This document shows positions 7,746 to 61,526 of a stretch of 64,000 bases of DNA, piece after piece (the first letter of the stretch is position 1; each line of letters begins with the position of its first letter). The DNA lies in assembly GCA_964356795.1 (NCBI GenBank), contig CAYHIK010000002.1:26600-90599 (forward strand), read 5' to 3'. The translations under genes and the position numbers were made by a program. The notes under the pieces are model-generated. The model was given only the letters and a program-made list of their open reading frames with translations, did not search any database and was not told the origin of the DNA. The stretch comes from an uncultured Candidatus Saccharibacteria bacterium. Lineage in GTDB: Bacteria; Patescibacteriota; Minisyncoccia; 2-02-FULL-40-12; GWA2-44-9.

Positions 7746-7751
7746 ATACTT

Positions 7752-8568: not shown

Positions 8569-8585
8569 GGGTACGCGTTGCAGGA

Positions 8586-9572: not shown

Positions 9573-9629
9573 CGCTAACCTCCGAAAACAAACGAGTTAT
9601 AAGAGATCTACAACGAACCTTCAATATTT

Positions 9630-9658: not shown

Positions 9659-9671
9659 TACCCCTTCACGC

Positions 9672-9704
9672 ACAAAAAAGCCCCGGATTTCGTGTATCCG
9701 AGGC
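9672..9704 (-). terminator. Rho-independent terminator of the 9729..10850 gene
   Basis: CCTCGGAT-acacgaa-ATCCGGGG hairpin followed by CUUUUUUG on the minus strand. Confidence 0.7.
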
Positions 9705-9728
9705 TCGCGGAGGGTGCCTTCATCCATA

Positions 9729-10850: not shown

Positions 10851-10908
10851 ACTTCACCTCCTTCGTTTTCAAAGATGCGCACACAATAGCACCCTCGTAT
10901 CGGGCGTC

Positions 10909-10942
10909 AAAAAAAGCATCCGGAACATAGTGTTCGGGATGC
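10909..10942 (-). terminator. Rho-independent terminator ending the minus-strand small-gene string
   Basis: GCATCCCGAAC-actat-GTTCCGGATGC hairpin followed by UUUUUUU on the minus strand, just 3' of stop 10951-10953. Confidence 0.7.
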
Positions 10943-10950
10943 TTAGAATG

Positions 10951-11184
10951 CTACTCGGATCTTTCCGAGATGCGGGCGAGATAGATGAGGATGTTCATCG
11001 CCGCAGGAAGCACGATGAGTAAATCCATTCGCTTCACAAGGTCGTCGCCACCAATGAGCTGGAACAACGTCATCGAGCATGCAACCCATGCAGCTGCGCC
11101 ACCGATTCCGAGAAGTAGGAAGGCAGCAACGCGATGCCGCTCACTCCAGCGTGAACCGTACTGCAGAAACTCTTCACGTGTCAT
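10951..11184 (-). CDS. Small membrane protein (~77 aa from MTREEF...)
   Basis: Start ATG at 11184 shares a base with the stop of the upstream gene (coupling); two hydrophobic helices. The longer ORF from 11235 overlaps its neighbour. Confidence 0.4.
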   Translation of the reverse strand: MTREEFLQYGSRWSERHRVAAFLLLGIGGAAAWVACSMTLFQLIGGDDLVKRMDLLIVLPAAMNILIYLARISERSE

Positions 11185-11393
11185 CACCGCACCACCTGCT
11201 TCCGTGGGCCAAGCGGACGAGGAGGAAAACCACACTCATGATCCGCGAGACGCTCGCGCCAGCACGAACCATCGAAGTGACCAATCGTGCCCGATGGCAC
11301 CAATGGCCCCCAGTGCTTGATGTACACACCCGTCTTCAGCCCGCAGTCACTGCAGGGCATGTCACCGAAATCGCCTCTCTGCGTGTCCGCCAT
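11184..11393 (-). CDS. 69-aa Cys-rich (zinc-ribbon-like) small protein
   Basis: CxxC...C...C spacing (MPCSDCG...GSCW...HEC); coupled to downstream gene. Confidence 0.4.
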   Translation of the reverse strand: MADTQRGDFGDMPCSDCGLKTGVYIKHWGPLVPSGTIGHFDGSCWRERLADHECGFPPRPLGPRKQVVR

Positions 11394-11409
11394 GCGACAC
11401 CTCCAACAT

Positions 11410-11661
11410 CTATGCCGAATGCTCCTTCGCGAATCCTACGCGCCCAATGTATTCCACGCAAGCCACTTCGGGAATCTCCTGAAGCGCAGCTCTCCACGCA
11501 TCAACAGACTCATCCTCCTCGACCCGCACGCCATAGATGCGACCGTTGTCCGTGAACGCGAGCGCCCACTCCCCCCACCCAGTAGCTCCTAGCTCCCGCG
11601 TGAGTTGCTGAATCACCTCGACACTCACATCACTCCGAAAAATCACCAGCAAGACTCGCAT
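11410..11661 (-). CDS. 83-aa hypothetical protein (alpha+beta, possibly Dabb-like)
   Basis: ATG at 11661 (MRVLLVIFRSD...); the longer ORF from 11715 adds a Cys/Arg-rich extension of doubtful reality. Confidence 0.4.
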   Translation of the reverse strand: MRVLLVIFRSDVSVEVIQQLTRELGATGWGEWALAFTDNGRIYGVRVEEDESVDAWRAALQEIPEVACVEYIGRVGFAKEHSA

Positions 11662-12788: not shown

Positions 12789-13054
12789 CACGCCCTCCTC
12801 GCACATCCTTCGTCAGTCCACTCTCTACGCCTATCCAGATCTGGCTTGGCGGTCTTCACGCGGGTACCGGGCCTGAGGGGTGGACATGACACCGAGGCCT
12901 GCAGAATGTGACGCACCTCTGCGAGGATTTCTTCCGCACTCAGCAATCGCGCGCCCTTGCACTTCGGACAAGTCTCCCGACCAGTCAGGCATCCATCCTC
13001 GATACCACCGTCGAGCACCCATCCGCGACCGTCACACTTGAAACACTGAAACAT
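12788..13054 (-). CDS. 88-aa CxxC...CxxC zinc-finger protein
   Basis: MFQCFKCDGRGWV...CPKCKG; RBS GGAGG 7 nt upstream of ATG 13054. Confidence 0.5.
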   Translation of the reverse strand: MFQCFKCDGRGWVLDGGIEDGCLTGRETCPKCKGARLLSAEEILAEVRHILQASVSCPPLRPGTRVKTAKPDLDRRREWTDEGCARRA

Positions 13055-13094
13055 CGCGCGCCTCCAAAAAAATTTGGATGATCTAGGAGCCTAA

Positions 13095-13265
13095 TTACTC
13101 CTTATACAACTTGCTTCGATAGGGCATGCCGGGACGATGGACAGGAAATTGCCTTTCGCGCTCTTCTCGTAAGCGACGAAAACCCTCAGAAACTTCCCAA
13201 TCTTCAGCAGGCCCTTGCTTTGACCTCTCGGCTTCCTTCCGATCAGAATCAAGCTCCTTCGCCAT
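13095..13265 (-). CDS. 56-aa charged small protein (MAKELDSDRKEAERSKQGPAEDWEVSEGFRRLREERERQFPVHRPGMPYRSKLYKE), alternative frame to the listed 13091..13321 ORF
   Basis: Hand translation; strong RBS GGAGG 7 nt upstream of ATG 13265; stop TAA at 13095-13097. The listed 76-aa frame lacks an RBS. Confidence 0.4.
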   Translation of the reverse strand: MAKELDSDRKEAERSKQGPAEDWEVSEGFRRLREERERQFPVHRPGMPYRSKLYKE

Positions 13266-13368
13266 AACTTTTCCTCCATTATTGGTGAACGAGTGAAGTC
13301 TCCCTTAGAAAAGATAACCATAACTAAGTAATTATGTCAAGATGATGCACTAAGTGGAGAAGCGATGT

Positions 13369-13395
13369 ATCGCTCCGGACTTCTCGTCCTGACGC
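13369..13395. repeat. 27-bp perfect direct repeat, copy 1 (ATCGCTCCGGACTTCTCGTCCTGACGC)
   Basis: Identical to 15675..15701; the two copies bracket the low-GC 666-aa gene. Confidence 0.9.
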
Positions 13396-13413
13396 ATTGA
13401 TGTCAGAACTCGA

Positions 13414-15414
13414 TTAATCGCTAACATTGATAACGATATTGCTGTCGCTGAAGTTATTAGCCCCATCAAACACCCGAACAATAACAGAATATTCTCCTGA
13501 GTCTAGGAATGGAATATAAAATGGCGGCTTAACGGGCAGGAAAACGCTATTATTAATCTTTATATAAAATCCAGCCTGAAGACCGCTTAACGCGTCCTCT
13601 GATGTGAACTCCAGCCGCACAACATCGCCCCTCTTAATTCTGTCGCCACTAACTTTGATGCTTGGCGGCAATGGTGGGATGCTGTCGACCATGATTTTAA
13701 AGCTGGATCGAGGCCCTAATGTACCCGTTTCATCTTTTGCCTGAAGATGAAAATACCAGATGCCGTTATCAACTAAAGCATCCACGTGATTATTTTTGGT
13801 CGATACAACCTTGTCTTCCGTAGGCCATTCAGAATGATTATCTAAACTATAGTAATAAGTACCACCCGAGAGTCCAGGCCAAGATAGCTTGACGGTGGCG
13901 TCTCCGTACCAGCGATTGCTATTTGGATGGCTCGGAGAAAATACTGGGATTTGGTTAGTAATATCGGAGATAGCAAATTCTTGGCGAACAACCTGATAGT
14001 AACCGTTGGTCACGAGGCGAAGCACATCTGTCCCCAGCCCATCATTGGCTAACACCTGAGTCTCATCAGTAAACTCAAGTGAAATTGAACCTATGCTTAG
14101 AGGTTGGATCAACAACTCTGCAACAGTACCGACAGCAGCATAGAACCCCGGGTTAGGGATTCCGCAAGTGATGCGTACCTCTCCTTTTTCTTTATTAATC
14201 TCTTTTTCTAGGAAAAAAGACGGAGCGCAGAATGAATTCATTGTCACAATATCAAGAACCTCTACCACCGTAGGGTCATAATGAACCACTGCGCTTACCA
14301 CATTAATATCTTCGCCGCCGGTAATCACTTCGATGGCTATTAATTTTTCTGAGGATTGCCGAATAACATCTGACTCAGGATTAAATTTTATGACAGAATT
14401 ATAGATAATGTATGGGGACTTCTCGAGGACCAGAGAGGAGTTGTTAAGCTTAAGAAGGTATGCAAAGTATGCTGCACTGAACAGAGCGGCTCCGACCAAC
14501 CAGAAAAATAACGCACTGTGTTTATGGTGATTTAAAAGCCTTGATAAAGAAAATAAGAGATAGAAAACAGAAAATGCCAGTACAGTACCGATCGCGAAGA
14601 AAAAGCTAATCCAGCGGTGCTGGACGGGAAAAAGGATAAGCGCACCACCGGGACTTTTTTCAATTCCAGGGAACACCACATCACGAGCAATGTAGTATTC
14701 ATCACCAATGTTAATTTCTTTTGAAATTCCAGCTATATTTTGAGCTCCATTATCGGAGCCCAAGGAAAAGTAGGTGTTGAGAAGCTTGGTCTTAGTTTTA
14801 TCATTTAGACTATCCCCGACTATCCCCTCCTGAGGTGTGTAGAAAAGAATCTGCGCTCCATATGATAAATATTTTTCCTGAAAGCGATACGCGTATGAAT
14901 CATATAATGAATAACCAATCGTAATGCCTCCGATTTGCGCTCCCCCATCTAAAACCTGGGAGACGCTTACAAAAATTAATGGGACTCTAGGGCCTCGTTC
15001 TATTACTGTTACGGAGCTCGCTTCTCCTTTAGCTATTATTCTGCCGTATGCGGATGTTAGGAAAAAGTTATCTCCCGTCTGAAGGGGTAGATGCGCGCGT
15101 GCAAGCACAAATCCGTTCTTATCTGTTACAACAATGAAATCAAGGGCTCTTTTTTTAGCCTCGGCCTGAGCGACCGCTAAAATCTCTACCGGATTACCCC
15201 TCTTGAGAGGCCCCGTGAATACTTCTGAGGCGAGAATCTGCTCCCTTTGCAAAGAAGCACTTTGGAGCTCCGCTTGAATCCCTCCTTCAACGCGAGATAA
15301 TTGTCGATTAATGCTTTGACTCTCCCAGAGATTCACCAGCTGAGTTGAAGAGAACAGCACACCCTCAAAGACCGAGAGACTTATCGCTAGTATGATAATA
15401 TCCTTACGATGCAA
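13414..15414 (-). CDS. 666-aa membrane protein: N-terminal anchor, extracytoplasmic domain, two TM helices, then cohesin-like and Ig/FN3-like beta domains; low GC (~43%)
   Basis: Long ORF with TTG start (no ATG in frame nearby). GC clearly below surroundings. Domain calls are by eye only. Confidence 0.65.
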   Translation of the reverse strand: MHRKDIIILAISLSVFEGVLFSSTQLVNLWESQSINRQLSRVEGGIQAELQSASLQREQILASEVFTGPLKRGNPVEILAVAQAEAKKRALDFIVVTDKNGFVLARAHLPLQTGDNFFLTSAYGRIIAKGEASSVTVIERGPRVPLIFVSVSQVLDGGAQIGGITIGYSLYDSYAYRFQEKYLSYGAQILFYTPQEGIVGDSLNDKTKTKLLNTYFSLGSDNGAQNIAGISKEINIGDEYYIARDVVFPGIEKSPGGALILFPVQHRWISFFFAIGTVLAFSVFYLLFSLSRLLNHHKHSALFFWLVGAALFSAAYFAYLLKLNNSSLVLEKSPYIIYNSVIKFNPESDVIRQSSEKLIAIEVITGGEDINVVSAVVHYDPTVVEVLDIVTMNSFCAPSFFLEKEINKEKGEVRITCGIPNPGFYAAVGTVAELLIQPLSIGSISLEFTDETQVLANDGLGTDVLRLVTNGYYQVVRQEFAISDITNQIPVFSPSHPNSNRWYGDATVKLSWPGLSGGTYYYSLDNHSEWPTEDKVVSTKNNHVDALVDNGIWYFHLQAKDETGTLGPRSSFKIMVDSIPPLPPSIKVSGDRIKRGDVVRLEFTSEDALSGLQAGFYIKINNSVFLPVKPPFYIPFLDSGEYSVIVRVFDGANNFSDSNIVINVSD

Positions 15415-15540
15415 AAAAAACAGACTTAAGAATCAATTTCCACATTGTATGATAATTATAATACAATGAATTCACCCGCACAATATAACCATATCATCGC
15501 GGCGCAATATTTATTAACCCAAAGCAAGCCCGATCCATAC

Positions 15541-15775: not shown

Positions 15776-15847
15776 CTCCGGGACCAGGACTCGAACCTGG
15801 AACCGTCTCGTTAACAGCGAGCTGCTCTACCATTGAGCTATCCCGGA
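15776..15847 (-). tRNA. tRNA-Asn (anticodon GTT), 72 nt, CCA not encoded
   Basis: Acceptor TCCGGGA/TCCCGGA, anticodon loop CTGTTAA, T-arm GGTTCGAGTCC; folded by hand. Confidence 0.85.
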
Positions 15848-31541: not shown

Positions 31542-32135
31542 CTACTGGAGCGCGAGGGTCACGCAGTCCCCTTCGCATTCGTACGCCGCGATTATCACTC
31601 TCCCCCCTCTCACGGGAAGGTGAAAGATGTCACCGTCACGCATCGAGAATTGCGTGGCAAGCCATTCACCGCCAGAGTGGCCATCGGCGTACCTCCTGAC
31701 ATACCGCCGAACCTCAAACAACGCCTCCTTCGTGGTCCCCTTATCGGCATACCGAATCCCCAACAACGAAACGGCCAGCTCGAGGTCGACCACGCCTCTC
31801 TGCTGAAGCACATCGGGATGTCCAGCGGTGACGCTGAACCCGACATGCGTGTGCCCGATACCATGTGGCGTGAGTGAAGTCCACACGCCGGACAGTGGCG
31901 CAAACAAATCGGGAGCAGTGAGTGACCCAGACACGTGAGACTGCTCCACATCGCCCGCCGAGGCCTGGGTCGGCAACTCCTTCTCGACTGCCGTCTTCGC
32001 AGTTGCCCCGACGAGTGGCCGCTCCTTCCACTCCGTCTTCATCAGCGACCAGGTCGCTCCAAAAATGAGAATGCACGCAGCGAACACCACGGATCCGTAC
32101 GGAAACGGCCGGTCACTGCCCTGCGGATTCGTCAT
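31542..32135 (-). CDS. 197-aa membrane-anchored hypothetical protein
   Basis: Strong RBS AAGGAGGT upstream of ATG 32135; N-terminal TM (VVFAACILIFGATWSLM). Confidence 0.55.
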   Translation of the reverse strand: MTNPQGSDRPFPYGSVVFAACILIFGATWSLMKTEWKERPLVGATAKTAVEKELPTQASAGDVEQSHVSGSLTAPDLFAPLSGVWTSLTPHGIGHTHVGFSVTAGHPDVLQQRGVVDLELAVSLLGIRYADKGTTKEALFEVRRYVRRYADGHSGGEWLATQFSMRDGDIFHLPVRGGRVIIAAYECEGDCVTLALQ

Positions 32136-32280
32136 CACCGACCTCCTTGTGAAAGTCCTCAATAATTAATTATATCATCTTTATAACGATAAGTCAATAA
32201 CACCCCTGCCGTATTGGCGGGGGTGTTATTCCTCAGCGGGGTGCCAAGTTAGAATGGAGCGAGTCAGGGTGGAGCGAGAC

Positions 32281-34343: not shown

Positions 34344-36056
34344 TTACGGATGATTCGGCGGCTTTTCGCCAGCGGATACACCCACCTTGAATTCGATTTC
34401 CTTCCTCCCCGAAACTTGGAAATCACCGACGACCACCTGATACTCCTCGACGTTGCTCTGGAGTCGGCTCGAGGTCTTTCGGACTTCACCGGCGATGTCT
34501 CCGATGTTCAGCGGCACGGATTCTACTGAACTCGCAGGACCCATCTTCGATGGAGGAAGTACCACGTAGATGTAGACCGCATCGGGTCGTCGCTTCGCAT
34601 TGAGCGATTCGACCAACGAGATGAGGTTCACCACACTTCCGGAGCTCTTCTCGACCGCATCGATTGTCTCGGCATCACCGACAACAATCTTCCCGACGCC
34701 ATACTGAAGATCGGATGGCAACAGGAAGCTCAAAGAAATCATCTTCGTATCTTTGAGCGGCTGATTGAGCGCCACCCGAAGCGTAAGCGTTTCACCGGGC
34801 TTGAAACTCGGACGATCGATGCTGGCAGACTCGATGGAGAGTCTCCGATACTCGTCGAACACCTTCGTCTCAACGCTCACCTGCTTGATGCGGGCCTTCG
34901 AAAACCTGTTCGAGAGCACCGAATCAACTTTTCGTGCGAGCACCGTCATGGGATTCGAGTCGAATGGACCATTCCCACGAACGCTCGTAAACGAATCGCT
35001 GAACTCCACGTCGCCCACGCCCTCGACTTCGATTTTGCCATTCAGGAATAACGTCATGTCGCCAATTTCGCGCGACCATGCCTGAACTGCAGTAGAAACA
35101 CCACTCCCAATGATCCGCGGAGCGAGTGTCGGGTCTGCGATGCTGTAGAACGTAAACTGCTTTCGAACGCCCGAACTCGTCGTGAGATCGATGTGCACAG
35201 GAATGGCGTTCTCTGCTTTTCGGCCGAGCTCGCCATAGATTGCCGTCTCGCGATCCTGGAGAATGACACCGAGCGGCTCGGCATCTGCGATCGGCGCGGC
35301 AACAATGTACGAATTCCGGAAACTCTCCTGTACCGTCAGCACCTTCATCGACACGAGGCGATATTCCGCCGGCCCCAATTGCATGAACGGGTGGCCAAAC
35401 ATGAATACGTTCTTACCCTCGACATGCGAGACGGTCCCGTAGCTGGTAAGGTCAAAATCGCCCCACGCAAGCTGAACGCCGAGCACATCACCCGCAGTAA
35501 CGGGATGTGGCGTACCCTTCACGGTAACACCACTCGATGCGCCCTCGTTGAGCATCATCAGAAATGGGTCACCTTCGGGTAGTGTTGCGCGGAGTGTCGA
35601 TAGCATGCTCACGCCCGGACGCGTGACCACGGGCATCTTTATGATGGCCGACGGATCCGCGTGGACGTTGAGCACCTCTCGAATCGGCGTGAGGTAACAG
35701 ATGGGGTTTCGGGCCCAATAGTCAGCATAGGAAAGCGTGCCAATCTTGTGGCGCTTCCCCTTCATGTCCACGTACATCGGACTTCCCGACTGACCAGAAG
35801 CAATGACAGCCTTATTCACCAGCTGAACCGCAATCCAGCTATGCCCCGGGCCGATCGTATTACGCATGACGCCGAGCAGGCGACCCTTCAAACGCGTCGG
35901 CCCCGAGGGGTCAAGCGTCGAGAATCCGTAGGCGGCGGTTCCGTGAGGAAGCGCCTCCACCTGCTCAATCGACAGCATGGGTTCTTCGGAGCGAGCAGTG
36001 GGCGCAAGGCCCGCGGCAAGCACCGCACTCAACAGACAAGGCAGCAGCAGGCGCAT
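34344..36056 (-). CDS. Secreted 570-aa protein with trypsin-like serine-protease-type motif (GQSGSPM)
   Basis: Signal peptide MRLLLPCLLSAVLAAGLAP; ASGQSGSPMYVD resembles the catalytic-Ser motif of S1/S55 peptidases. Family assignment uncertain. Confidence 0.6.
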   Translation of the reverse strand: MRLLLPCLLSAVLAAGLAPTARSEEPMLSIEQVEALPHGTAAYGFSTLDPSGPTRLKGRLLGVMRNTIGPGHSWIAVQLVNKAVIASGQSGSPMYVDMKGKRHKIGTLSYADYWARNPICYLTPIREVLNVHADPSAIIKMPVVTRPGVSMLSTLRATLPEGDPFLMMLNEGASSGVTVKGTPHPVTAGDVLGVQLAWGDFDLTSYGTVSHVEGKNVFMFGHPFMQLGPAEYRLVSMKVLTVQESFRNSYIVAAPIADAEPLGVILQDRETAIYGELGRKAENAIPVHIDLTTSSGVRKQFTFYSIADPTLAPRIIGSGVSTAVQAWSREIGDMTLFLNGKIEVEGVGDVEFSDSFTSVRGNGPFDSNPMTVLARKVDSVLSNRFSKARIKQVSVETKVFDEYRRLSIESASIDRPSFKPGETLTLRVALNQPLKDTKMISLSFLLPSDLQYGVGKIVVGDAETIDAVEKSSGSVVNLISLVESLNAKRRPDAVYIYVVLPPSKMGPASSVESVPLNIGDIAGEVRKTSSRLQSNVEEYQVVVGDFQVSGRKEIEFKVGVSAGEKPPNHP

Positions 36057-53801: not shown

Positions 53802-54623
53802 TCACTTGAGATTTCTGAATTCGGACTTGATCTGCGCCGAGAACTCCAGCAACCTCGGGTTCAGGTGCAGGTCCGGTTGCCACGCCAATCCCTCGACAAT
53901 CAAGTCATACTCACGCACGACCGTCGCGCCTGGAATGCGTTTACCCTCTCCGTCTTTCTCCAGGCCGAGCAACCAGATAGTGTCGGCGATGGTACAAGCC
54001 GCCGTCACATCGTGAGTGACGACAATGATGGTACTGAGCTCGTCGGCCGACGCTACCTCAGTGATGAGCTTCGTGACGTTCTCCAGCATGATGACATCCA
54101 GCCCGGAGAACGGCTCATCCATCAGGAGGAAGTGCTCACTGCACAATAGTTGCTGCGCAATCGCCAACCGCTGACGCTGACCCCCCGACAACTGACTCGG
54201 GTAGAGATCGCGACGTTCGGTGAGACCGAACCGCTCGAGCATCTCATCCGCTTTCATGCGGATGTCCTTGCCTTTCAGGCCCCGCTGTCGTGTCGCGAAG
54301 TACAGGTTGCCTCGCACCGTCAGGAACTTCAGGAGCGGGTAGTGCTGGGCCACAACACCCACGAGTCCGTCCGGCGACCGGTCGCCATGCTCGTTGATAG
54401 TCACCGTACCTTCAGTTGGACGTCGCAGACCCGCGAGGATCTTGAAGAGCTGCGTCTTCCCGATACCCGAAGGCCCAAGGAGCGCAACGACCTGGCCCTG
54501 GGTGAATCCAGGACGGACGATGTTATCAATCCGAAGGTTGATATTGCGCAAGATACGCGAACCACCCAGAACGAGGCCAACGCCCTCGGCTTTCAGAAGT
54601 GTCTCTTGTCGAGTGTAGTTCAT
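53802..54623 (-). CDS. ABC transporter ATP-binding protein (NitT/TauT nitrate/sulfonate/taurine-type)
   Basis: Walker A GPSGIGKT, LSGGQRQR signature, Walker B LLMDEPFSGLD. Confidence 0.85.
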   Translation of the reverse strand: MNYTRQETLLKAEGVGLVLGGSRILRNINLRIDNIVRPGFTQGQVVALLGPSGIGKTQLFKILAGLRRPTEGTVTINEHGDRSPDGLVGVVAQHYPLLKFLTVRGNLYFATRQRGLKGKDIRMKADEMLERFGLTERRDLYPSQLSGGQRQRLAIAQQLLCSEHFLLMDEPFSGLDVIMLENVTKLITEVASADELSTIIVVTHDVTAACTIADTIWLLGLEKDGEGKRIPGATVVREYDLIVEGLAWQPDLHLNPRLLEFSAQIKSEFRNLK

Positions 54624-54627
54624 GGCC

Positions 54628-55419
54628 TCACCCCTTCACCGTGGCAAGCGCCGCATATGGACACGCGCGGTTCTTGAGCCAGCCAATGACGGCATCCATG
54701 CCCAGCCCGAGCAGAAGGATGCACAGCTGTACGGCGAACACCGCATCCAGGTTGAAGTGCTTGTTCTGGTTGAGCAGCAGCGCACCGACGCCGCCCTCAC
54801 CCCTGCTGAGTCCCTCGACCATGGTCAGCATATTCCAGCCGATGGCGAAGTTCTGCCGAAGCGCCTCGATAGCGTCATCAAGCGTACCGCGTACGACGAC
54901 GTTCCAGACGAGCTGGGTGCGCGACATGCGAAGCGTACGTGCGTAGTCCAGGTCGTCGGTCGGAATGGATACCACAATGGCGGCCATCGAAGTCGTGTAG
55001 AACACGGTCATCCCAAACACCAAGAGCGCTACCTTGAACTGGTGCCCGCCCTTGAGGTATAGCGTGAATAGGAACGTGAGCCCCACAAGTCCAAGAAAGC
55101 GGCCCTTGGAGATGAGCGTAACGATTGGCCTGAACATCGGAATCACCGAAAGATATGCCATCGCCAGCGACAACAACACAGTCAACGCAATTGCGTGTAG
55201 GTTGAGTATGAAGCTCGTGACGAGCTCGCGACCCAGGCCCTCTTCCATCCACATCCGACCCAGTGCAGAAAGCACCTCGGGTGGCGTGGGGATGACATCC
55301 GATGGCATACACCACCACAACATCATGGCCAGAAAGGCCTGACTTGCGGCAGTGAGCGCCATCACCGATGGCGAGACAACACCGAACGGCAACATTAATT
55401 GCCGCAGCGCCTTGCCCAT
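54628..55419 (-). CDS. ABC transporter permease (NitT/TauT family)
   Basis: 6 TM; RBS AAGGAGGA upstream of ATG 55419 (the ORF-table N-terminal 20 aa extension is unlikely). Confidence 0.8.
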   Translation of the reverse strand: MGKALRQLMLPFGVVSPSVMALTAASQAFLAMMLWWCMPSDVIPTPPEVLSALGRMWMEEGLGRELVTSFILNLHAIALTVLLSLAMAYLSVIPMFRPIVTLISKGRFLGLVGLTFLFTLYLKGGHQFKVALLVFGMTVFYTTSMAAIVVSIPTDDLDYARTLRMSRTQLVWNVVVRGTLDDAIEALRQNFAIGWNMLTMVEGLSRGEGGVGALLLNQNKHFNLDAVFAVQLCILLLGLGMDAVIGWLKNRACPYAALATVKG

Positions 55420-55492
55420 ACGTCCTCCTTCGATAATTATTAAACAGCTACCGCTTGCTCTCCGCTGAGCATCCCACACCTGTGAGCCGCTC

Positions 55493-55527
55493 AGAGAAAA
55501 GGCCCACCCCCCAACAGGAGGTGGGCC
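55493..55527 (-). terminator. Rho-independent terminator of the 604-aa gene (GGCCCACC-...-GGTGGGCC + UUUUCUCU)
   Basis: Perfect 8-bp stem on the minus strand between the high-GC island and the ABC operon. Confidence 0.8.
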
Positions 55528-55549
55528 AAACTATCGTCGATGTCAGAAC

Positions 55550-57364
55550 CTAGATGGTGCCCAGCACGATCTCGACGCGGCGGTTGCGGGCGCGTCCTGC
55601 GTCCGTCCCGTTGGACGCGATCGGGTTGGTCTGCCCGTGAGCATAGACCTCGATGCGTCCGGACGGGAAGAGGGTGGAGCTCTTCGCCTCCAGCCACTCC
55701 TTGACCGCGAAGGCCCGGGCTTCGGACAAGGTCTGGTTCGCATCGGCGTTCCCGACGTTGTCGGTGTGGCCGTGCACGATGACCTTGTAGTTGCCCTGGG
55801 TGATCTGCTGGTACAGCTCGTCGAGCGCCGATTGCGCCGCCGGGGTGAAGGACGCCTTGCCCGTCTCGAAGGTAATCGAGTAGGAGGCGCGCTTGCCTAC
55901 GACGTCACGAATCTGCGCGTTCGCGAACTGGTTTTCAGTGCGAAGCGTCACGGGACCCGCGAGACGAGAGACCTCGGCCACGTAGCTCGTGTCGATGGCC
56001 TCTTCGGCAGGCGGATACGTGGGCACATCGCCCGGGTAGTACTTCTTCACGTAGTTACCGAACAGCGTGTAGGTGGCGGCTGCCTTGTTGCCCTGGTAGG
56101 GCGGAAGACCGAACAACTCCAGCATGTCCGGCAGGTTGTTGACGTACGAACCGCCCAGCTCCACGGGGATGCCAAGCTTGTCGCTCTCGGTCACGCCCTT
56201 GTAGTAGCGCTCCCAGTACGCGGCATCCGAACCGTTCTCAGCGAAGACGACCTCGGCGACACGCGCGGCCTGTGAGAGCGCCTGCGGATACGCCTTGATC
56301 TGATCGCCGGCCTCGGCGATTGCACGGAACATATTGACGAAGGTTGCCCGGTTATCCTGGGCAAACTTGTCAATGACGATGATGGCGTTGGGCATCTGCG
56401 ACGCGTTCTCACGCGTCGACAGAATGTTGACCAGACCGCCACGCTGCTGCGCGACGTTCACGTCGCCGGGGGTCCAGGTGACCACGCCGTTGACGCACAC
56501 GTTCTTCGTTTCACCCGTGGGCTCATTCTTCAGACCCTTGACGACCTTTCGGTCTTCGCAGGCGCCGCCGATGTAGGACTGCGCGGCTTCGATGTATCCC
56601 GGGGTACTAACCCAGTTGATGGCGTCGGCGTTCCAGGTTGTCATGTCAGGGTTGATGGGGATGTCGTTCAGGGCAGCCCAGTAGACCGCGATGTTCCAGT
56701 CCCCGTCCTTGATGACGCCCGCTACGAGTGCGCCACGCGCCCTCTGCGGATCCTTCTTCCAGGCAGGTGGACCCATGAACTTGTCCTCTCCGCGCGAGTA
56801 GCCCGCTGAGCCGATCCACTTGGCCTGGTACTCGGGGCCCAACTTCTTGAGCTTGGGATTCACGCCCGCGAGGAACGAGGCGGCGCCATCACCCATGATG
56901 GCAACGCAGGGCGCGCCACCGGGGTTCGGGTCACCATCCTTGTAGCCCTTCGCAAACGCAAGGAGAGCGGCCTGCATCTTGTCGGGCCAATCCTGACGCT
57001 CGAACCGCAGATTGACGCCGTACTTGGCGTTCAACGATCCCTGCGTCGGAGTGGCGCCACCGTTGGCCAACAGCCAGCCGAGCTGACTGTTCCAGGCCCA
57101 GTGCAGACAGGTGAACTGCGGCCCCGACACCGAGGCCGAGCCCGCGGAGGGCAGCGACAGCGGAGCGGACGGGGTAGCCGTCGTGTTTGTCGTGGTGACG
57201 TCAGGCAGCGAGCCCTTTTCGGGAACCGCCGAACCGGACGCCTTCTTGGACGGCACGAGCTTGTCCAACAAGCCCGAGTCGTACGCCTTGTAGATGCCGA
57301 ACGAGACGAGGCTCACCACGCCAAACGTGATGATAGCCTTGCCCAGAGGCTTGATCTGCGCCAT
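55550..57364 (-). CDS. Membrane-anchored periplasmic protein: N-terminal TM, Ser/Thr/Pro linker, ~400-aa SBP-like (NMT1/SsuA-type?) domain, C-terminal OmpA/MotB peptidoglycan-binding domain; high GC
   Basis: C-terminus YKVIVHGHTDNVGNADANQTLSEARAFAVKEWL...RRVEIV is OmpA_C. N-terminal helix AIITFGVVSLVSFGIY. The middle-domain call is by eye. Confidence 0.8.
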   Translation of the reverse strand: MAQIKPLGKAIITFGVVSLVSFGIYKAYDSGLLDKLVPSKKASGSAVPEKGSLPDVTTTNTTATPSAPLSLPSAGSASVSGPQFTCLHWAWNSQLGWLLANGGATPTQGSLNAKYGVNLRFERQDWPDKMQAALLAFAKGYKDGDPNPGGAPCVAIMGDGAASFLAGVNPKLKKLGPEYQAKWIGSAGYSRGEDKFMGPPAWKKDPQRARGALVAGVIKDGDWNIAVYWAALNDIPINPDMTTWNADAINWVSTPGYIEAAQSYIGGACEDRKVVKGLKNEPTGETKNVCVNGVVTWTPGDVNVAQQRGGLVNILSTRENASQMPNAIIVIDKFAQDNRATFVNMFRAIAEAGDQIKAYPQALSQAARVAEVVFAENGSDAAYWERYYKGVTESDKLGIPVELGGSYVNNLPDMLELFGLPPYQGNKAAATYTLFGNYVKKYYPGDVPTYPPAEEAIDTSYVAEVSRLAGPVTLRTENQFANAQIRDVVGKRASYSITFETGKASFTPAAQSALDELYQQITQGNYKVIVHGHTDNVGNADANQTLSEARAFAVKEWLEAKSSTLFPSGRIEVYAHGQTNPIASNGTDAGRARNRRVEIVLGTI

Positions 57365-57420
57365 GACTTTCTATCTCCTTCTGAACGATACGAGTCAATT
57401 CCGATGCGGCAGAACGCCGC

Positions 57421-57463
57421 GTAAAAAGATACAGTTTCAGCCGGACGGGATTGCCCGGCTGAA
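57421..57463 (-). terminator. Rho-independent terminator of the 57475..58524 gene (UUUCAGCCGG-loop-CCGGCUGAAA + U-tract)
   Basis: Perfect 10-bp stem on the minus strand. Confidence 0.8.
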
Positions 57464-57474
57464 ACCGCGCCTCA

Positions 57475-58524
57475 CTATTGCGTCTGCCGCAACGGACGGG
57501 TCGGCACTCGGGCCGGCTCGTCATCGGGAAATGCCAACGACAACGAAAGCGGCTGTTCGGGGTCGGCCGCCGTGGATAGCAAGTGCTGCTTCTCGCCCTC
57601 CGGGAGGAGGAGAGAATCAGCACGCTTCTCCCAGGCTTCCAACTTCGCCAGCGCCTCGTCTTCGAACATGCCGTTCTCAAGGTCGAGCTGTGAAGTGAAC
57701 TCGTCGCTGATGCGGAGGAAATCTTCGACCTCCCCCATCTTCTCGCTGAAGTCCTGCTTGATGTACTCCGCGGCCTGCTCCTTGAGCTCCCAGGCGTCGC
57801 CGCCCTTGCCGATGATGGCGCGGGAGTTCTTGAGCACGACCTCGGTCGTCTTGGCGGCCTTGAACTGGACTTCCAGCTCTTGGACCTCGTCGACCGTGTC
57901 GTCGATGACGACGGAGGCAACGTCCCGCATCTTACTGAGCGTGCGGTAGAGGATCTCCAACTTGGCGAGCATATGCTCGTAGCTTATGGTGCTCTTCCCA
58001 CGCCGCCCGGCCATGCGACCGAGCTTCGCGAGCGCGAGCTTGTCGTTCTGCTTGCGCGCCTGCGCCGCCAACTTCATCGCCCGGTCGAACTCGACCTTCT
58101 TGGTGTGAATCAACTCGGTCAGATATGAGATCTGACCCTTGAGCTTTCCCAGCTGAGCATCGACGCTCTCCAACTCCTTTCGTTTCTCCGAGATGAAGTT
58201 CTTGAGGATGCCGATGGGGTCGATGGTAATCAACATGCCGGTGAAGGAACGCATGCCTGCCTTGAACCAAGCGGACATGATGAACCTGAACCGCTTGTTG
58301 GCGATGACCGACCAGAATGCGTACAGGCCGACAGCCAGCACACTACAGCCGATGGCCGCACCCAGAGCCGAGAACAGCCCCGAGAGCAGCGTCAATAGGA
58401 ATGGCAGAGCCGCATAGGCCCCGACCGCACCCAAAACGGTGGCGATTGAGAGGAAGACCATGCCGGTCGTCCCCTCGGTTCGCTCCCAGAAGGATTTTGC
58501 CTTAACGACGTCGATCTCGTTCAC
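57475..58524 (-). CDS. Membrane protein with 2-3 N-terminal TM helices and a ~250-aa cytoplasmic coiled-coil domain; high GC
   Basis: GTG start at 58524 with strong RBS AAAGGAG (5-nt spacing), 28 nt after the stop of the upstream gene. The longer ORF-table start at 58596 overlaps that gene. Confidence 0.7.
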   Translation of the reverse strand: MNEIDVVKAKSFWERTEGTTGMVFLSIATVLGAVGAYAALPFLLTLLSGLFSALGAAIGCSVLAVGLYAFWSVIANKRFRFIMSAWFKAGMRSFTGMLITIDPIGILKNFISEKRKELESVDAQLGKLKGQISYLTELIHTKKVEFDRAMKLAAQARKQNDKLALAKLGRMAGRRGKSTISYEHMLAKLEILYRTLSKMRDVASVVIDDTVDEVQELEVQFKAAKTTEVVLKNSRAIIGKGGDAWELKEQAAEYIKQDFSEKMGEVEDFLRISDEFTSQLDLENGMFEDEALAKLEAWEKRADSLLLPEGEKQHLLSTAADPEQPLSLSLAFPDDEPARVPTRPLRQTQ

Positions 58525-58552
58525 AGATTCTCCTTTCGATTCGGTGGGGGCA

Positions 58553-59242
58553 TCAGCCCTTGAGGTAGGTCTTAACCTTCTCGAGCTCCGCGGCAAGCTG
58601 CCCGCTCAGCGCCTGATGGGCGCCAGCGAACTTCTCGCGCTTCGCAGTGTACCTGGCCTTGTTCGATGCCAGCTCGGAGCGCATTGCTTCGCAGCTCTTC
58701 TGCAATTCAGCGATCTGCGCTTCGACGGCAGCCAAGTTCGCCTCTGCACCGCCAATCCTCTTCTTCTCTTCGGCGGCCACCTCGTCGCTGAACTGAGTGG
58801 CATATGCCTCGAGAATCTTGATACGATCTTGGACAGCGGCGACCACGGCGCTCTTATTCAGATCGCCATGCGCACGAGACGCCGACTTGAGCGCCGCATT
58901 GTAGAGACGCGCTTCGTCGGGGATGTCTTCCTTGAGGGCGTCCAGCTGCCCCATGAACTCAACGTAGCCAGGCAGAGTGGATTTCTCCACAAGACCATTG
59001 AGGATACGGACGTATTCCTCGTCGACGGCTCCAGTCGTAGGCGCGTAGCGCTTGACCGGTGCCTTCGCCGAAGACGCCTCGCTTGGGTTGCCCCGTGAAT
59101 CGTCAGCAGTCGCCTCACCCTCAACGGGCGGGGCTTCTGGTTTGTCGAGCTCCACAAAGGCGCCCAAAAGGCTTCTAAGTACCGTCATTTCGACCTCCCT
59201 GATAGGTTTTTGATTCTGACGTAGACTGTCAAAGAACCCCAC
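58553..59242 (-). CDS. 229-aa cytoplasmic coiled-coil protein (PspA/IM30-like?); high GC
   Basis: RBS GGGAGGT 4 nt upstream of ATG 59242; heptad-rich helical sequence; no TM. Confidence 0.7.
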   Translation of the reverse strand: MGFFDSLRQNQKPIREVEMTVLRSLLGAFVELDKPEAPPVEGEATADDSRGNPSEASSAKAPVKRYAPTTGAVDEEYVRILNGLVEKSTLPGYVEFMGQLDALKEDIPDEARLYNAALKSASRAHGDLNKSAVVAAVQDRIKILEAYATQFSDEVAAEEKKRIGGAEANLAAVEAQIAELQKSCEAMRSELASNKARYTAKREKFAGAHQALSGQLAAELEKVKTYLKG

Positions 59243-59335
59243 TTTCAGCCCTATCTATACTACATATTGAGTTAAGAGTCAAGGCACTCTGGGACATAGT
59301 TGGGAACGTGTCAAATTCCCCCTCCACGCCAAAAG

Positions 59336-60430
59336 CTAGGCGCTTTCGCGCTCTTGGAATCCAAACGAGTAGATTGCTGATGTTACGAGTAGAATGCTCC
59401 AGACGGTCATCCCAAAAAGATCACCCCAGATAGAGGCAAAGCTCGCGTCTTTTGTCATAACCTCGCGAAGTGCGTCTCCAAAAAATGAGAGCGGTAAGAG
59501 CTTTGCAATTGATTGAATCCAGTCTGGCATTCCGGTGATGGGGAAAAACGTACCACCGAGAAACAACATCGGGAATACGATAAGATTTGCCATGGCGGGC
59601 ACTGACTCAACGGTAGATGCGATACCAGAAATGGTAAAGCCTAGCCCAAGGAACATGAGCGCGCCCAGGAGCACGCTAAGCAACACGAGCCAGTACGAAC
59701 CAACCACATGCGCATCGAGCATCAGTATGCCCACAATAATAAAGATAACCGTCTGCACAACCGACATGACCAAGCGCACAATCGCATTTGCAGTTACGAA
59801 TTCAACGGGACGCATCGGCGTTGCCGCGAGTCGCTTGAGCACGCCCTTCTCTTTATATTGCACAAATAAGAACGCGACCGAGAACACGGACATCTGCATG
59901 ACTGCCATCGAAATGAGCCCCGGAAGAAGATAGTCGATATACGACACATCGCGCGCATCAATCGCTTCTTTCTTGATTGAGAAGAATGGTTGAACACGAG
60001 CCATCGCAAGACTCGTCTTATCGAGATACTGATTTAATATTGAGAGTAGCGCCTGTGATTGTGCGGGCTGTGATTCATTCACATACACCGTAAGCACCTG
60101 CGGGCGCTGAGCGGCGGAATCAATGAAATCACTCGGCACCACAAGCACGAGAACGCGATCACCCTCTTCCAACGCACCTCGCTCATCGGAAAGACTCCCC
60201 TCATGAATATCAAGCACCGTTATATTCTTCAGTGATGCAATAAACTGTTGGGTTTGCGGTTGTGGCGAGGAAGCTACAAGCCCTACGCTGTACGTCTGTG
60301 GCTTATCAAATCCGATAAGACCAAAGATAACCATAATCACCAGCGGCATAAACAAACTGAAGAAGAGCGCCTGCTTACTACGCACAAAGATGCGAGCCGA
60401 TGATTTGAGAAGTGCTAAAAAGCTTTTCAT
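59336..60430 (-). CDS. ABC-2 type transporter permease
   Basis: 6 TM, ABC-2 membrane-domain layout; downstream of its ATPase. Confidence 0.8.
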   Translation of the reverse strand: MKSFLALLKSSARIFVRSKQALFFSLFMPLVIMVIFGLIGFDKPQTYSVGLVASSPQPQTQQFIASLKNITVLDIHEGSLSDERGALEEGDRVLVLVVPSDFIDSAAQRPQVLTVYVNESQPAQSQALLSILNQYLDKTSLAMARVQPFFSIKKEAIDARDVSYIDYLLPGLISMAVMQMSVFSVAFLFVQYKEKGVLKRLAATPMRPVEFVTANAIVRLVMSVVQTVIFIIVGILMLDAHVVGSYWLVLLSVLLGALMFLGLGFTISGIASTVESVPAMANLIVFPMLFLGGTFFPITGMPDWIQSIAKLLPLSFFGDALREVMTKDASFASIWGDLFGMTVWSILLVTSAIYSFGFQERESA

Positions 60431-60440
60431 AGCGTATACA

Positions 60441-61526
60441 TTAGTCTCGAAGCTGACGCCCAGTTAAGCGAAGGAATACATCTTCAAGTGTTGAGCGCTT
60501 CAGCATTAAACCATCGATGGGAAAGCCCTCTGAGCGACTCATAGCGAATAATGCATCAAGTGTATGGCGCGGATCCGCAGTTGCGACCACATGCGACCCC
60601 GCATCGAAGCGAGTAGATTCAACGCCAGCAAGAGATGCGAGTTGCTCCGCTGGGATTTCCGCATTACTAGTGAACTCAATATGGGCGGAACCACCGTGAT
60701 TCTCCAGGAGCGCTGACGTTGTATCGAGTGCCACGATGTGCGCGTGGTCCATCACCGCGATACGATCGCAAAGATATTCGGCTTCGTCCATGTAGTGCGT
60801 CGTAAGCACCACCGTGGTGCCTCGTGCATTAATGTGTCGAACAAGGTCCCATAGATTTCGACGGGCTTGTGGATCGAGCCCCGTTGTGGGCTCATCGAGG
60901 AATAGCACCACCGGGTCATTCACAAGTCCAACTGCTATGGAGAATCGCTGTTTTTGTCCTCCTGATAGTTCTTTGATTTGCTGATGCGCCTTCTCCGTAA
61001 GCTGAACCTCATTGAGGAGTTCCATTGCATCTACCGTTCTTCCATAGAGCGCACCAAACATTTCGAGTGTTTCCAGAAGCGTCAATCCATCAAAAAATGT
61101 CGAAGCCTGAGGTTGAACTCCGATAATATGCTTCACCGCCTGTGTATCGGTTTGCACGTTGAGTCCATTGATGCTTATTTCGCCCGACGTAGGACGGCGA
61201 AGCCCCTCAATCATCTCAAGCGTAGTCGTCTTTCCGGCGCCGTTGGGTCCAAGAATTCCAAACACCTCACCACGACGCACCGTGAATGAAATGCCATCCA
61301 CCGCGGTAAAGTCGCCATATCGCTTCGTAAGATTGGTAACCGAAATAACATCGGACTGCGCCTCTTTTTCTGGACTTACATTAGCATCGCTTCGATGAAG
61401 CGCAGCCGCAACATGTTCCGTCGTCCACCCAGATGCGCTGAGTGCATCTGCGACTTGCGTGAGCGACATGCCCGCGGCTTGTGCGGACGAGAGAAATACA
61501 GAGAGTTGATCTGACAGGGTTTGCAT
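60441..61526 (-). CDS. ABC transporter ATP-binding protein (ABC-2/DrrA-like) with ~50-aa N-terminal extension
   Basis: GPNGAGKTTT, LSGGQKQR, LFLDEPTTGLD; TATAAT box 8 nt upstream of ATG. Confidence 0.85.
   Translation of the reverse strand: MQTLSDQLSVFLSSAQAAGMSLTQVADALSASGWTTEHVAAALHRSDANVSPEKEAQSDVISVTNLTKRYGDFTAVDGISFTVRRGEVFGILGPNGAGKTTTLEMIEGLRRPTSGEISINGLNVQTDTQAVKHIIGVQPQASTFFDGLTLLETLEMFGALYGRTVDAMELLNEVQLTEKAHQQIKELSGGQKQRFSIAVGLVNDPVVLFLDEPTTGLDPQARRNLWDLVRHINARGTTVVLTTHYMDEAEYLCDRIAVMDHAHIVALDTTSALLENHGGSAHIEFTSNAEIPAEQLASLAGVESTRFDAGSHVVATADPRHTLDALFAMSRSEGFPIDGLMLKRSTLEDVFLRLTGRQLRD

Follow-up and report, generated by a model that had tools for sequence, protein, structure and literature searches.

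The window, the whole 64-kb stretch of DNA analysed here, contains a GC-rich block of minus-strand genes that appear to encode envelope proteins, and this raises the question of what these genes do together, how far the block extends and where it came from. The first-pass annotation described a three-gene unit flanked by two housekeeping ABC operons. The locus is better read as an envelope cassette of five genes (g1-g2 / g3 / g4-g5) that was acquired horizontally and in which a PspA-like membrane module is probably combined with a wall-tethered ABC importer.

Extent and composition of the island

The three tightly spaced minus-strand ORFs first described are present at 58553-59242, 57475-58596 and 55550-57364 (g1, g2 and g3), and their GC content is 0.59-0.66 against about 0.53 for the window. 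The GC-rich island is real, but it starts at about 53,850 and not at 55,493. The rise takes in a permease gene (54628-55419) and an ATPase gene (53802-54623), so the low-coordinate ABC operon is not a housekeeping neighbour; these genes are the cognate partners of g3, and the ABC-2 exporter at 59336-61526 is the one ABC operon that truly flanks the island. Within the compositional island, approximately 53,850-59,240, all five genes (g1 to g5) point the same way. Their GC3 is 0.69-0.84, compared with 0.592±0.068 for the other 44 ORFs in the window, and they take five of the seven top values among the 49 ORFs.

Two strong terminators had been proposed, and both are recovered as intrinsic-terminator-like hairpins with U-rich tails, lying in intergenic DNA on the coding (minus) strand. 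The hairpin between g2 and g3 (57431..57468) has a 16-bp stem followed by AUCUUUUUA and folds at -30.4 kcal/mol (z -6.95, 0/200 shuffles as stable). The hairpin between g3 and g4 (55501..55527) has a 12-bp stem followed by UUUUCUCU and folds at -25.2 kcal/mol (z -5.26). The nine terminator-like sites in the 54-61 kb region are not above the shuffle expectation of 6.0±2.2, and only these two stand out. The hairpins could give rise to three independent transcription units. A candidate promoter identified by eye is located upstream of g1 on the minus strand (59254..59282; TTGACT, 17-nt spacer, TATAGA); a promoter scan of 54-61 kb returned no sites, this candidate lacking the required T at -10 position 6.

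Binding protein and importer

The g3 gene (55550..57364, minus strand) encodes a 604-aa protein with a TM anchor (~6-30), a disordered S/T/P linker (37-80), a type II solute-binding domain of the TauA/NrtA/CmpA/NMT1 class (~84-470) and an OmpA-like peptidoglycan-binding domain (498-595). An NMT1/SsuA-type fold had been recognised by eye. In agreement with this, Foldseek searches with the AF2 model (pLDDT 83.9) match the binding domain to TauA (6ssy), NrtA (2g29), CmpA (2i49), ThiY (4nmy) and Thi5 with E-values of 6e-9 to 5e-8, the NMT1/TauA/NrtA-type matches falling between 6e-9 and 1e-8. The C-terminal OmpA domain, also noted at first, matches PF00691 with 75.9 bits (cutoff 27.2) and resembles the OmpA-like domains 7rjj and 5u1h in Foldseek. 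The motifs NQTLSEARA and NRRVE are found in g3, and there are more than 3,000 full-length homologues. The protein is predicted to be a membrane-anchored TauA/NrtA/NMT1-class solute-binding protein fused to an OmpA-like peptidoglycan-binding domain. The suggestion of a MotB-like stator anchor finds no support, since a MotA/ExbB-type ion-channel partner is absent.

The g4 gene (54628..55419, minus strand; ATG behind GAAGGAGG) encodes a 263-aa TauC/NtrB/SsuC-like ABC importer permease. It matches BPD_transp_1 (E 4.4e-10), and its best NCBIfam matches, TauC and NtrB, are both under their own cutoffs. The g5 gene (53802..54623, minus strand) begins 4 nt past the g4 stop and encodes a 273-aa ABC ATPase (ABC_tran, E 1.7e-28) with intact catalytic motifs, namely Walker A GPSGIGKT, signature LSGGQ, Walker B FLLMDE and the H-loop TH. 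Compared with adjacent gene trios in Acidobacteriota, g3, g4 and g5 show 52-63% identity; g4 is 57-63% identical to the gene adjoining the g3 homologues and for g5 the figure against the acidobacterial operon partners is 52-55%, and both resemble these partners as closely as g3 does. The two are predicted to form the cognate type I ABC importer of g3.

A membrane-anchored PspA/Vipp1-like protein and its upstream partner

The g2 gene (57475..58524, minus strand) encodes 349 aa and starts with the GTG at 58524 behind AAAGGAG, as first annotated. The protein has a conserved N-terminal motif (KSFWER.EG), a TM hairpin at ~20-76 assigned by hydropathy, an alpha0-like helix (77-98), an invariant D102-P103, a long hairpin (103-158/162-235) and further helices. 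An early suspicion of PspA/LiaH likeness has gained weight from profile comparison. Aligned with operon-linked PspA, the g2 family scores 93% in hhalign (E 3.4e-7), with g2 95-282 placed on PspA 2-188; the register holds over 178 columns, beginning with alpha0 and the D-P that opens alpha1. Control coiled-coil profile pairs score 4-33%. Vipp1/PspA also rank top in Foldseek with the AF2 model (pLDDT 77.7). Clustering at 50% identity divides the family into at least 1,553 groups. PspA_IM30 is matched by 9 of 53 members, with a sub-threshold best E of 3e-4, and is tied for most with ATG14 (9/53), a generic coiled-coil match. g2 scores 10 bits against PspA_IM30 (PF04012), under the threshold of 33.9, and a profile search of PDB sequences recovered no PspA. 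From these comparisons and the model, g2 is predicted to be anchored by two TM helices and to have, as its cytoplasmic part, a distantly PspA/Vipp1-like helical domain of the ESCRT-III superfamily.

The g1 gene (58553..59188, minus strand) encodes a 211-aa soluble coiled-coil protein and most likely starts at the ATG at 59188, behind GGGAGG, and not at the GTG at 59242 from which a 229-aa product had been translated. An HMM of the genes upstream of g2 homologues, mostly from viral contigs, matches it full length from the Met at 59188 (E 5e-31, 106 bits), and the gene call on record for the contig is also 211 aa. The protein has a short amphipathic motif at its N-terminal end (VLRSLLGAFVE), then a linker rich in Pro and Ala, and a coiled coil of ~140 aa at its C-terminal end. 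A Pfam search with g1 matched no family. The g1 family aligns with the acidobacterial X family at 96% in hhalign (E 4e-9), and g1 is predicted to be X-like, a counterpart of the unnamed 'X' gene in the published operon described below.

Gene neighbourhoods in genomes and viral contigs

The genome survey covers 38 non-redundant loci whose flanks extend 4 kb or more in both directions, and g4 and g5 lie beside g3 in every one of the 38. Of these loci, 31 carry an ESCRT-III-like partner (PspA or TM-Snf7), 19 carry X and 11 carry AAA+. In seven loci (Bacteroidota, Myxococcaceae and one Thermoanaerobaculia) g3-g4-g5 occur without a detectable coiled-coil partner, which suggests that the transporter can work alone. 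The Myxococcota loci L084 and L088 have the order of the window, X - TM-ESCRT-III-like - g3 - g4 - g5, and bona fide PF04012 PspA genes occupy the equivalent position in acidobacterial operons. The g2 family is found in Bacteroidota (236 aa - 356 aa - NMT1+OmpA - permease - ATPase), in Polaromonas (232 aa - 348 aa - SBP+LysM, a triad only, without adjacent ABC genes) and on phage-like contigs of about 370-446 kb.

In IMG/VR, g2 is present on 40 viral loci, and 15 of those contigs are 215-529 kb long. The order g2-g3-g4-g5 is kept in 30 of the 31 loci with enough downstream DNA. A gene of ~190-250 aa (ORF length) lies directly upstream of g2 in all of the loci and most share the N-terminal motif of g1; the viral modules are flanked by phage replication genes. 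The g1-g2 type is predominantly phage-borne, mainly on viral contigs, and the window's variant is sporadic in bacteria. Co-conservation of the first three genes holds in both genomes and viral loci, but the unit has five genes, as g4 and g5 share the GC3 excess and are co-conserved with g3. These neighbourhoods indicate that g1 to g5 stay together in different phyla as well as in huge phages.

Relationship to known systems

The architecture had been thought to be undescribed. However, Ravi et al. (2024, mSystems, PMC11237479) already list PspA/TM-Snf7/AAA+ operons with these components, including X-PspA-(PBPb+OmpA)-permease-ABC ATPase-(TM+Snf7)-AAA+; OGG56892.1 from Candidatus Handelsmanbacteria is an example of a PspA/TM-Snf7/AAA+ operon (Ravi, Anantharaman, Aravind, Gennaro et al., PMC11237479). 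An X-family gene, a TM-anchored ESCRT-III-like protein, an SBP-OmpA protein, a permease and an ABC ATPase are common to that operon and the window, and acidobacterial copies contain the same g3, g4 and g5 families at 52-63% identity. Compared with the operon as given there, the window lacks a separate soluble PspA and a two-domain AAA+ ATPase, and its gene order, g1-g2-g3-g4-g5, is different. The anchored protein of the window comes from another family, one that aligns to PspA and shows no resemblance at the profile level to TM-Snf7 as published (hhalign 4%). Phage-borne prevalence is a feature of the window type, and no mention of it is found in the parts of PMC11237479 consulted. The window's cassette appears to be a lean variant of the published operon, without AAA+, in which the anchor and the PspA-like domain are predicted to be joined in one protein.

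In the classical Psp and Lia systems (E. coli PspA with PspBC, B. subtilis LiaI-LiaH) a small TM partner recruits a PspA-like helical protein to the cytoplasmic membrane. The window module is likewise envelope-linked, with a PspA-like helical protein predicted at this membrane, but the g2 anchor is fused to the PspA-like domain and g2 lies under the PF04012 threshold. The module is transporter-linked and lacks PspF, PspBC and the LiaFSR regulator. The TauABC, SsuABC, NrtABCD and CmpABCD importers, which have NMT1-like binding proteins, share with the window the binding fold, the families of the permease and the ATPase, and motifs that are intact; unlike theirs, the window's binding protein is anchored by an N-terminal TM segment and carries a peptidoglycan-binding domain at its C-terminus, and all NCBIfam scores are far under the equivalog cutoffs. 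That C-terminal domain is like the Pal, MotB/PomB, TagL/TssL and YiaD anchors in sequence and fold, but is joined to a solute-binding protein and not to a porin, stator or secretion-system baseplate. The archaeal 'Meth_adaptin' ESCRT loci, which contain a gene for a ProX binding protein (Makarova et al. 2024 preprint, PMC11188069), also link ESCRT-III-type membrane-remodelling genes to an ABC-type solute-binding protein. They differ from the window in being archaeal, in having Vps4 ATPase, adaptin-like proteins and another class of binding protein, and in lacking a wall anchor.

Origin and alternative explanations

The GC3 excess across five adjacent genes and the patchy distribution of the module (Acidobacteriota, Myxococcota, Armatimonadota, Bacteroidota, Polaromonas and huge phages) support horizontal acquisition, as the first-pass annotation had concluded from the compositional break. 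That these are native genes in an ordinary local GC fluctuation is highly improbable. The GC3 baseline covers 64 kb of genome only, the TruD-like gene at 8586-9572, outside the island, has a GC3 of 0.82, and the module slightly exceeds its flanks in GC in every genome carrying it and in phage loci too, so the excess is partly intrinsic to its genes. Against this, such high GC3 values are concentrated in adjacent genes, neighbouring recA and the stretch with S6/S18 ribosomal-protein genes are not GC-rich, and the closest homologues beyond the organism's own clade come from high-GC phyla. A phage moron recently captured from a huge phage, with a role in infection (superinfection exclusion, lysis timing or host takeover) and only a passenger in the bacterium, is improbable. 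It would fit the location of the g1-g2 type, chiefly on viral contigs that reach 529 kb, the PHROG families that match g3, g4 and g5, and the pairing of the window's g3 and g4 with viral locus L130 in neighbour-joining trees. However, this pairing may be long-branch attraction, and L130 is not the donor since its GC is 38%. No integrase, phage gene or flanking repeat was found near the island, the five ORFs are intact with good ribosome-binding sites, and g3-g5 identity is highest to bacterial copies. In a relative whose g3 is 85% identical, the arrangement is the same and the ABC-2 exporter again adjoins it, which argues that the insertion is not recent.

A self-contained three-gene island for envelope stress or stator-like anchoring, with a coiled-coil pair and an SBP-OmpA anchor between unrelated housekeeping ABC operons, is very unlikely. 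The tight spacing and GC richness of g1-g3, the strong hairpin after g3 and the Polaromonas triad would suit it, but it is contradicted by the co-conservation of g4 and g5 with g3 (38/38 genome and 30/31 viral loci), by the compositional excess that extends through both genes, by their equally close acidobacterial matches and by the missing channel partner. It is also unlikely that the locus encodes an ordinary sulfonate, nitrate or thiamine-precursor importer, wall-tethered by chance, with g1 and g2 as generic coiled-coil membrane proteins and an artefactual PspA likeness. The in-register g2-PspA alignment far exceeds the control pairs, PF04012 genes hold the equivalent acidobacterial position, and the linkage of g1/g2 with g3-g5 persists across phyla and phages.

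Proposed function

For the five-gene cassette we infer that membrane stabilisation or remodelling is coupled to a wall-tethered importer. g3 would bridge the gap between membrane and wall, capture a small solute and pass it to the g4/g5 importer, while the TM hairpin would hold g2 at the importer's membrane. g2 may polymerise on the cytoplasmic face, and the bilayer around the transporter would then be stabilised or remodelled under envelope stress. g1 may be a regulator or adaptor of g2, and partial termination at the two strong internal hairpins probably sets the stoichiometry. Carried by a huge phage, the cassette would maintain both the energised state of the host membrane and import through long infections.

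Gene organisation of the island

The GC-rich island of the window holds five co-oriented genes on the minus strand, g1 to g5; the first-pass annotation was right that an island is present but counted only three. The coiled-coil gene g1 (58553-59188, 211 aa) starts at an ATG after GGGAGG and g2 (57475-58524, 349 aa), which combines a transmembrane (TM) hairpin with a putative PspA/Vipp1-like domain, at a GTG after AAAGGAG. They are followed by g3 (55550-57364, 604 aa; ATG after AAGGAG), a binding protein with an OmpA domain, and the permease gene g4 (54628-55419, 263 aa; ATG after GAAGGAGG). The ABC ATPase gene g5 (53802-54623, 273 aa) starts 4 nt past the g4 stop codon. The contig's recorded gene calls agree on the lengths of all five products. 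There is ambiguity over where g1 starts, because the minus-strand stretch 59188-59242, between a GTG at 59242 and the ATG at 59188, encodes MGFFDSLRQNQKPIRE, a second N-terminal family motif, and this motif may be duplicated. A promoter-like TTGACT-17-TATAGA was read by eye upstream of g1, and the site scan did not accept it.

Two hairpins with U-rich tails lie in the gaps of the cassette, one between g2 and g3 (57431-57468, -30.4 kcal/mol, z -6.95) and one between g3 and g4 (55501-55527, -25.2 kcal/mol, z -5.26). The proposal of strong bounding and internal terminators stands for these two, the only exceptional terminator-like sites in 54-61 kb, but not for terminators in that region as a whole, where the total of nine sites is within the 6.0±2.2 expected by shuffling.

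Relationship to a described operon

The first-pass annotation could assign this architecture to no described system; a related operon is however listed by Ravi et al. 2024 (PMC11237479). As far as it is set out there, it shares with the window a solute-binding protein that is targeted to the membrane and carries a fused OmpA domain, an adjacent ABC permease and ABC ATPase, and an unnamed gene, X, at its head, the position held by g1. It differs in two components of the listing: its standalone PspA_IM30 gene is absent among the island's five genes, where the PspA-like domain lies within g2, and its two-domain AAA+ protein, with an inactive N-terminal copy, is absent from these five and the immediate flanking genes. 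The TM-anchored, divergent Snf7 (TM-Snf7) family of the operon has the same architecture as g2, a motif before a TM hairpin and then a helical domain, although hhalign of g2 against TM-Snf7 gives just 4%. The motifs before the hairpin read KEAFKWQYN in TM-Snf7 (loci L002, 11461-12453, and L003, 11444-12349; L numbers denote the bacterial and viral loci compared with the window) and KSFWERTEG in g2. For this operon, Ravi et al. propose a tie between membrane remodelling and solute transport. The ProX gene of the archaeal Meth_adaptin ESCRT loci (PMC11188069) offers a loose parallel. The window cassette is a version of a described kind of operon; what is new and most interesting about it is its distribution among phages.

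The binding protein and its transporter

The N-terminus of g3 is a single hydrophobic anchor followed by a disordered linker. The domain of about 390 aa after the linker is modelled by AF2 with pLDDT mostly above 85, and its best Foldseek matches are TauA, ThiY, NrtA, CmpA and Thi5 (E 6e-9 to 5e-8, target TM-scores 0.58-0.68). Its two-lobe fold scores 0.68 against TauA (6ssy), 0.65 against NrtA (2g29) and 0.64 against CmpA (2i49), with E-values of 6e-9 to 2e-8. These matches confirm the by-eye assignment to an NMT1/SsuA-type fold. The Pfam NMT1-type domain has no match in residues 85-480 of g3, and an NMT1/NMT1_2 match is present in its Bacteroidota counterpart (L010). The invariant motifs MGDG, SRGED, DGDWNI and TWTPGD of the g3 family suggest a conserved pocket.

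At the C-terminus g3 carries an OmpA-like domain (PF00691, 75.9 bits, gathering cutoff 27.2) that retains the conserved N..LS..RA and NRR motifs, matches in fold, and is 29-39% identical to solved peptidoglycan-binding domains. The g4 protein is a BPD_transp_1 permease with TauC and NtrB as its nearest relatives. In the ABC ATPase encoded by g5 the Walker A, Walker B, signature and H-loop motifs are all intact, and the pair has the features of a type I ABC importer. A MotB- or stator-like role for g3 had also been suggested, and we reject it since a channel partner is absent. PADLOC assigned no anti-phage defence system and returned just generic MotB-domain and ABC-ATPase-domain matches.

The g2 family and PspA

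The g2 protein begins with a conserved motif, after which two hydrophobic helices form a hairpin (residues ~20-76). These are followed by a short helix (77-98), an invariant D102-P103, a long helical hairpin (103-158/162-235) and two to three more helices, an arrangement that appears to follow the helix order expected of PspA. When the family profile (53 members) was aligned with the PF04012-positive PspA proteins of the acidobacterial operons, hhalign gave 93% (E 3.4e-7, 178 columns); control pairs made up of further coiled-coil profiles of these loci scored 4-33%. From the alpha0 helix onwards the alignment stays in register, and D102-P103 falls on the 'EHPE/ENPE' motif of PspA. About 10 of the top 15 Foldseek matches to g2 are Vipp1/PspA cryo-EM chains. 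The resemblance to PspA suspected in the first-pass annotation is thereby supported.

Direct searches against Pfam and the PDB give a weaker signal. The g2 protein scores 10 bits against PF04012 (E 0.63), below the gathering cutoff of 33.9. PspA_IM30 is the Pfam family matching most members of the g2 family, tied with ATG14, a generic coiled-coil match, at 9/53 each; every Pfam match in the family is sub-threshold, the nine to PspA_IM30 (best E 3e-4) included. The family profile finds only weak coiled-coil noise among PDB sequences (CHMP1B, E 1.9), and PspA is absent. Weighing the hhalign and Foldseek support against the sub-threshold Pfam scores and the null PDB search, we regard g2 as a probable remote homologue in the PspA/ESCRT-III superfamily that lies outside PF04012. 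The family is large: clustering at 50% identity gives at least 1,553 clusters with E ≤ 1e-3, and 762 of these reach E ≤ 1e-30. It is also uniform in length, all members being about 340-350 aa.

g1 and the X family

The g1 protein opens with a short amphipathic motif, continues with a linker rich in Pro and Ala and ends in a coiled coil. It matched no Pfam family, a word-index search returned g1 itself as the sole match, and BLASTP of g1 and g2 against their acidobacterial neighbours found nothing significant, so profile methods were required. The genes that precede g2 homologues were used to assemble the g1 family; the resulting HMM matches the window g1 over its full length (5e-31), and hhalign of this family against X gives 96% (E 4e-9). 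On these profile matches, g1 is identified as the counterpart of X. The two share a design in which an N-terminal motif (MGIFDTLK..., KKWYEYFVSVE) precedes a Pro-rich linker; we take this motif to be reminiscent of the PspA/Vipp1 helix alpha0.

Co-conservation in bacterial genomes

Full-length homologues of g3 number in the thousands. A genome scan with the g3 alignment confirmed 578 relatives, and the best 80 of these, from Acidobacteriota, Myxococcota, Armatimonadota and Bacteroidota, were considered. They yielded 38 non-redundant loci with at least 4 kb on either side, in which each neighbour family was sought with an iterated profile. Among these 38 loci from the best 80 of 578, g4 and g5 are near g3 in every case, a PspA or TM-Snf7 gene in 31, X in 19 and an AAA+ ATPase in 11. 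The constant company of g4 and g5, together with a GC rise that starts within one of the supposed flanking operons, contradicts the description of the island as lying between two housekeeping ABC operons.

Gene order varies between lineages. It is X-PspA-g3-g4-g5-TMSnf7-AAA in Bryobacterales and other Acidobacteriota, g4-g5-TMSnf7-g3 in Thermoanaerobaculia and g3-g4-g5-TMSnf7-X in Armatimonadota, and some Myxococcota have X-TMSnf7-g3-g4-g5, the order of the window. Seven of the 38 loci (again from the best 80 of 578) have the transporter with no recognisable partner; the transporter is therefore the older part, to which the coiled-coil pair was added.

The neighbourhood comparison proposed in the first-pass annotation shows that the order of the g1-g2-g3 triad recurs in Bacteroidota, Polaromonas and viral contigs. 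Around g2 homologues, Bacteroidota encode proteins of 236 aa and 356 aa, an NMT1+OmpA protein, a permease and an ATPase. Polaromonas encodes proteins of 232 aa and 348 aa and an SBP_bac_3+LysM protein, and the ABC genes are absent. This triad variant, with LysM in place of OmpA and no ABC genes after it, is found at 7001-9241 in Polaromonas sp. P5_D5 (L006/L007). That a wall-binding domain of another type occupies the corresponding place points to wall tethering as the selected feature.

Phage and viral copies

The cassette is also present on contigs of about 370-446 kb that are rich in small ORFs, as genes for proteins of ~221-229 aa and ~345 aa, an OmpA protein, a permease and an ATPase. Scanning IMG/VR for g2 gave 40 loci, of which 15 lie on contigs of 215-529 kb. 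The order g2-g3-g4-g5 is kept in 30 of the 31 viral loci with sufficient downstream DNA. Immediately upstream of g2, all of these have a gene whose ORF is roughly 190-250 aa long, and most of these genes share the N-terminal motif of g1. The flanks encode primase, clamp loader, exonucleases, HNH endonuclease and tRNA nucleotidyltransferase. L129 (IMGVR_UViG_3300042566_001780) is the sole viral locus with ample downstream DNA in which no g3, g4 or g5 was detected after g2. Small ORFs, one of them DUF8296, are interposed among g3, g4 and g5 in the phage copies L008/L009 (9800-13900) and in L091-L093, L096 and L110, and L008 has an additional NMT1_3 binding-protein gene downstream.

A literature search found no phage-borne PspA/OmpA/ABC module, and no paper on the g2-type variant or its phage distribution. 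The 'pspA-like' gene of the Jug gut phages was set aside as such a module, being TerD-linked and in a different context.

Composition and origin

The window carries recA, ftsK, S6/S18/SSB, ychF and RNase J genes and is therefore bacterial; no rRNA was found in it. To judge from its name, the sample is a 0.1-µm fraction of groundwater. GC content is 0.59-0.66 across ~53,850-59,240, against about 0.53 window-wide. The GC rise described in the first-pass annotation is real, but the boundary claimed for it at 55493 is wrong, as an onset at ~53,850 falls inside the supposed flanking housekeeping ABC operon. Across the five genes GC3 takes values of 0.72, 0.73, 0.84, 0.81 and 0.69, compared with a mean of 0.592±0.068 for the other long ORFs (n=44), and the proposed horizontal acquisition holds up on this basis. 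Expression-linked codon bias does not account for the excess, since neither the adjacent recA nor the stretch with the S6/S18 ribosomal-protein genes is GC-rich. Part of it is intrinsic to these genes, because the cassette is 0.5-7 points GC-richer than its flanks in phage loci too.

No integrase, tRNA or bounding repeats were found at the island borders in the window, and a search for flanking direct repeats gave just short chance matches. In a relative with an 85% identical g3, the five genes stand in the same order next to the same ABC-2 exporter, and the acquisition is therefore older than the split of the two. By identity the nearest copies of window g3-g5 are bacterial (52-63%). Neighbour-joining trees pair window g3 and g4 with the viral locus L130. 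With a GC of only 38%, L130 is not the donor, and long-branch attraction may explain why they pair.

Other compositional features were seen. In L094-L133 the module (~6300-11500 in each locus) is GC-richer than its flanks in all phage loci checked, for example 0.346 vs 0.274 in L094. The highest GC3 in the window outside the island, 0.82, belongs to a TruD-like pseudouridine synthase gene (8586-9572, minus strand). A low-GC patch at 13000-15500 (0.43-0.45 vs 0.53), which may be a second foreign insertion, contains a 666-aa ORF (13414-15414, minus strand; GC3 0.42) that has no Pfam match and adjoins a tRNA gene (15776-15847). Large ORFs without a Pfam match also occur at 2511-5501, 34344-36056 and 31542-32162.

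Proposed function and implications

PspA, Vipp1 and ESCRT-III proteins act in membrane repair and remodelling across all domains of life. In the mechanism we propose, g3 would sit with its N-terminus in the membrane and its C-terminus on peptidoglycan, catching a small solute and passing it to the g4/g5 importer. Held in the same membrane, g2 would polymerise on the cytoplasmic face and seal or shape the bilayer, with g1 as its putative regulator or adaptor. The hairpins could adjust the ratios of g1-g2 to g3 to g4-g5, and in phages the cassette might serve to maintain a working envelope in the host. We offer only tentatively, as a rather doubtful possibility, that g1-g5 form a distinct and widely mobile envelope-spanning machine, in which an anchored ESCRT-III-like polymer is physically coupled to a peptidoglycan-tethered ABC importer, and which is exchanged between phages and bacteria as a standard tool of huge phages for holding the host envelope together, or re-plumbing it, in the course of infection.

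If this is true, the g2 family, which has no Pfam model, would add to PspA/ESCRT-III a new branch, present in bacteria and viruses, that works without an AAA+ disassembly ATPase. The cassette as such hard-wires a probable PspA-like domain to the membrane and ties it genetically to a transporter whose binding protein is predicted to bridge membrane and wall. With five genes and no AAA+ ATPase, it is a compact system for asking whether solute transport is coupled to membrane remodelling. For genome annotation it matters that g1, g2 and the g3 binding domain all belong to large families yet lack a Pfam model. The recurrence of the cassette on viral contigs, 15 of them of 215-529 kb, hints at a class of auxiliary genes in phages, so far unrecognised, that targets the host envelope.
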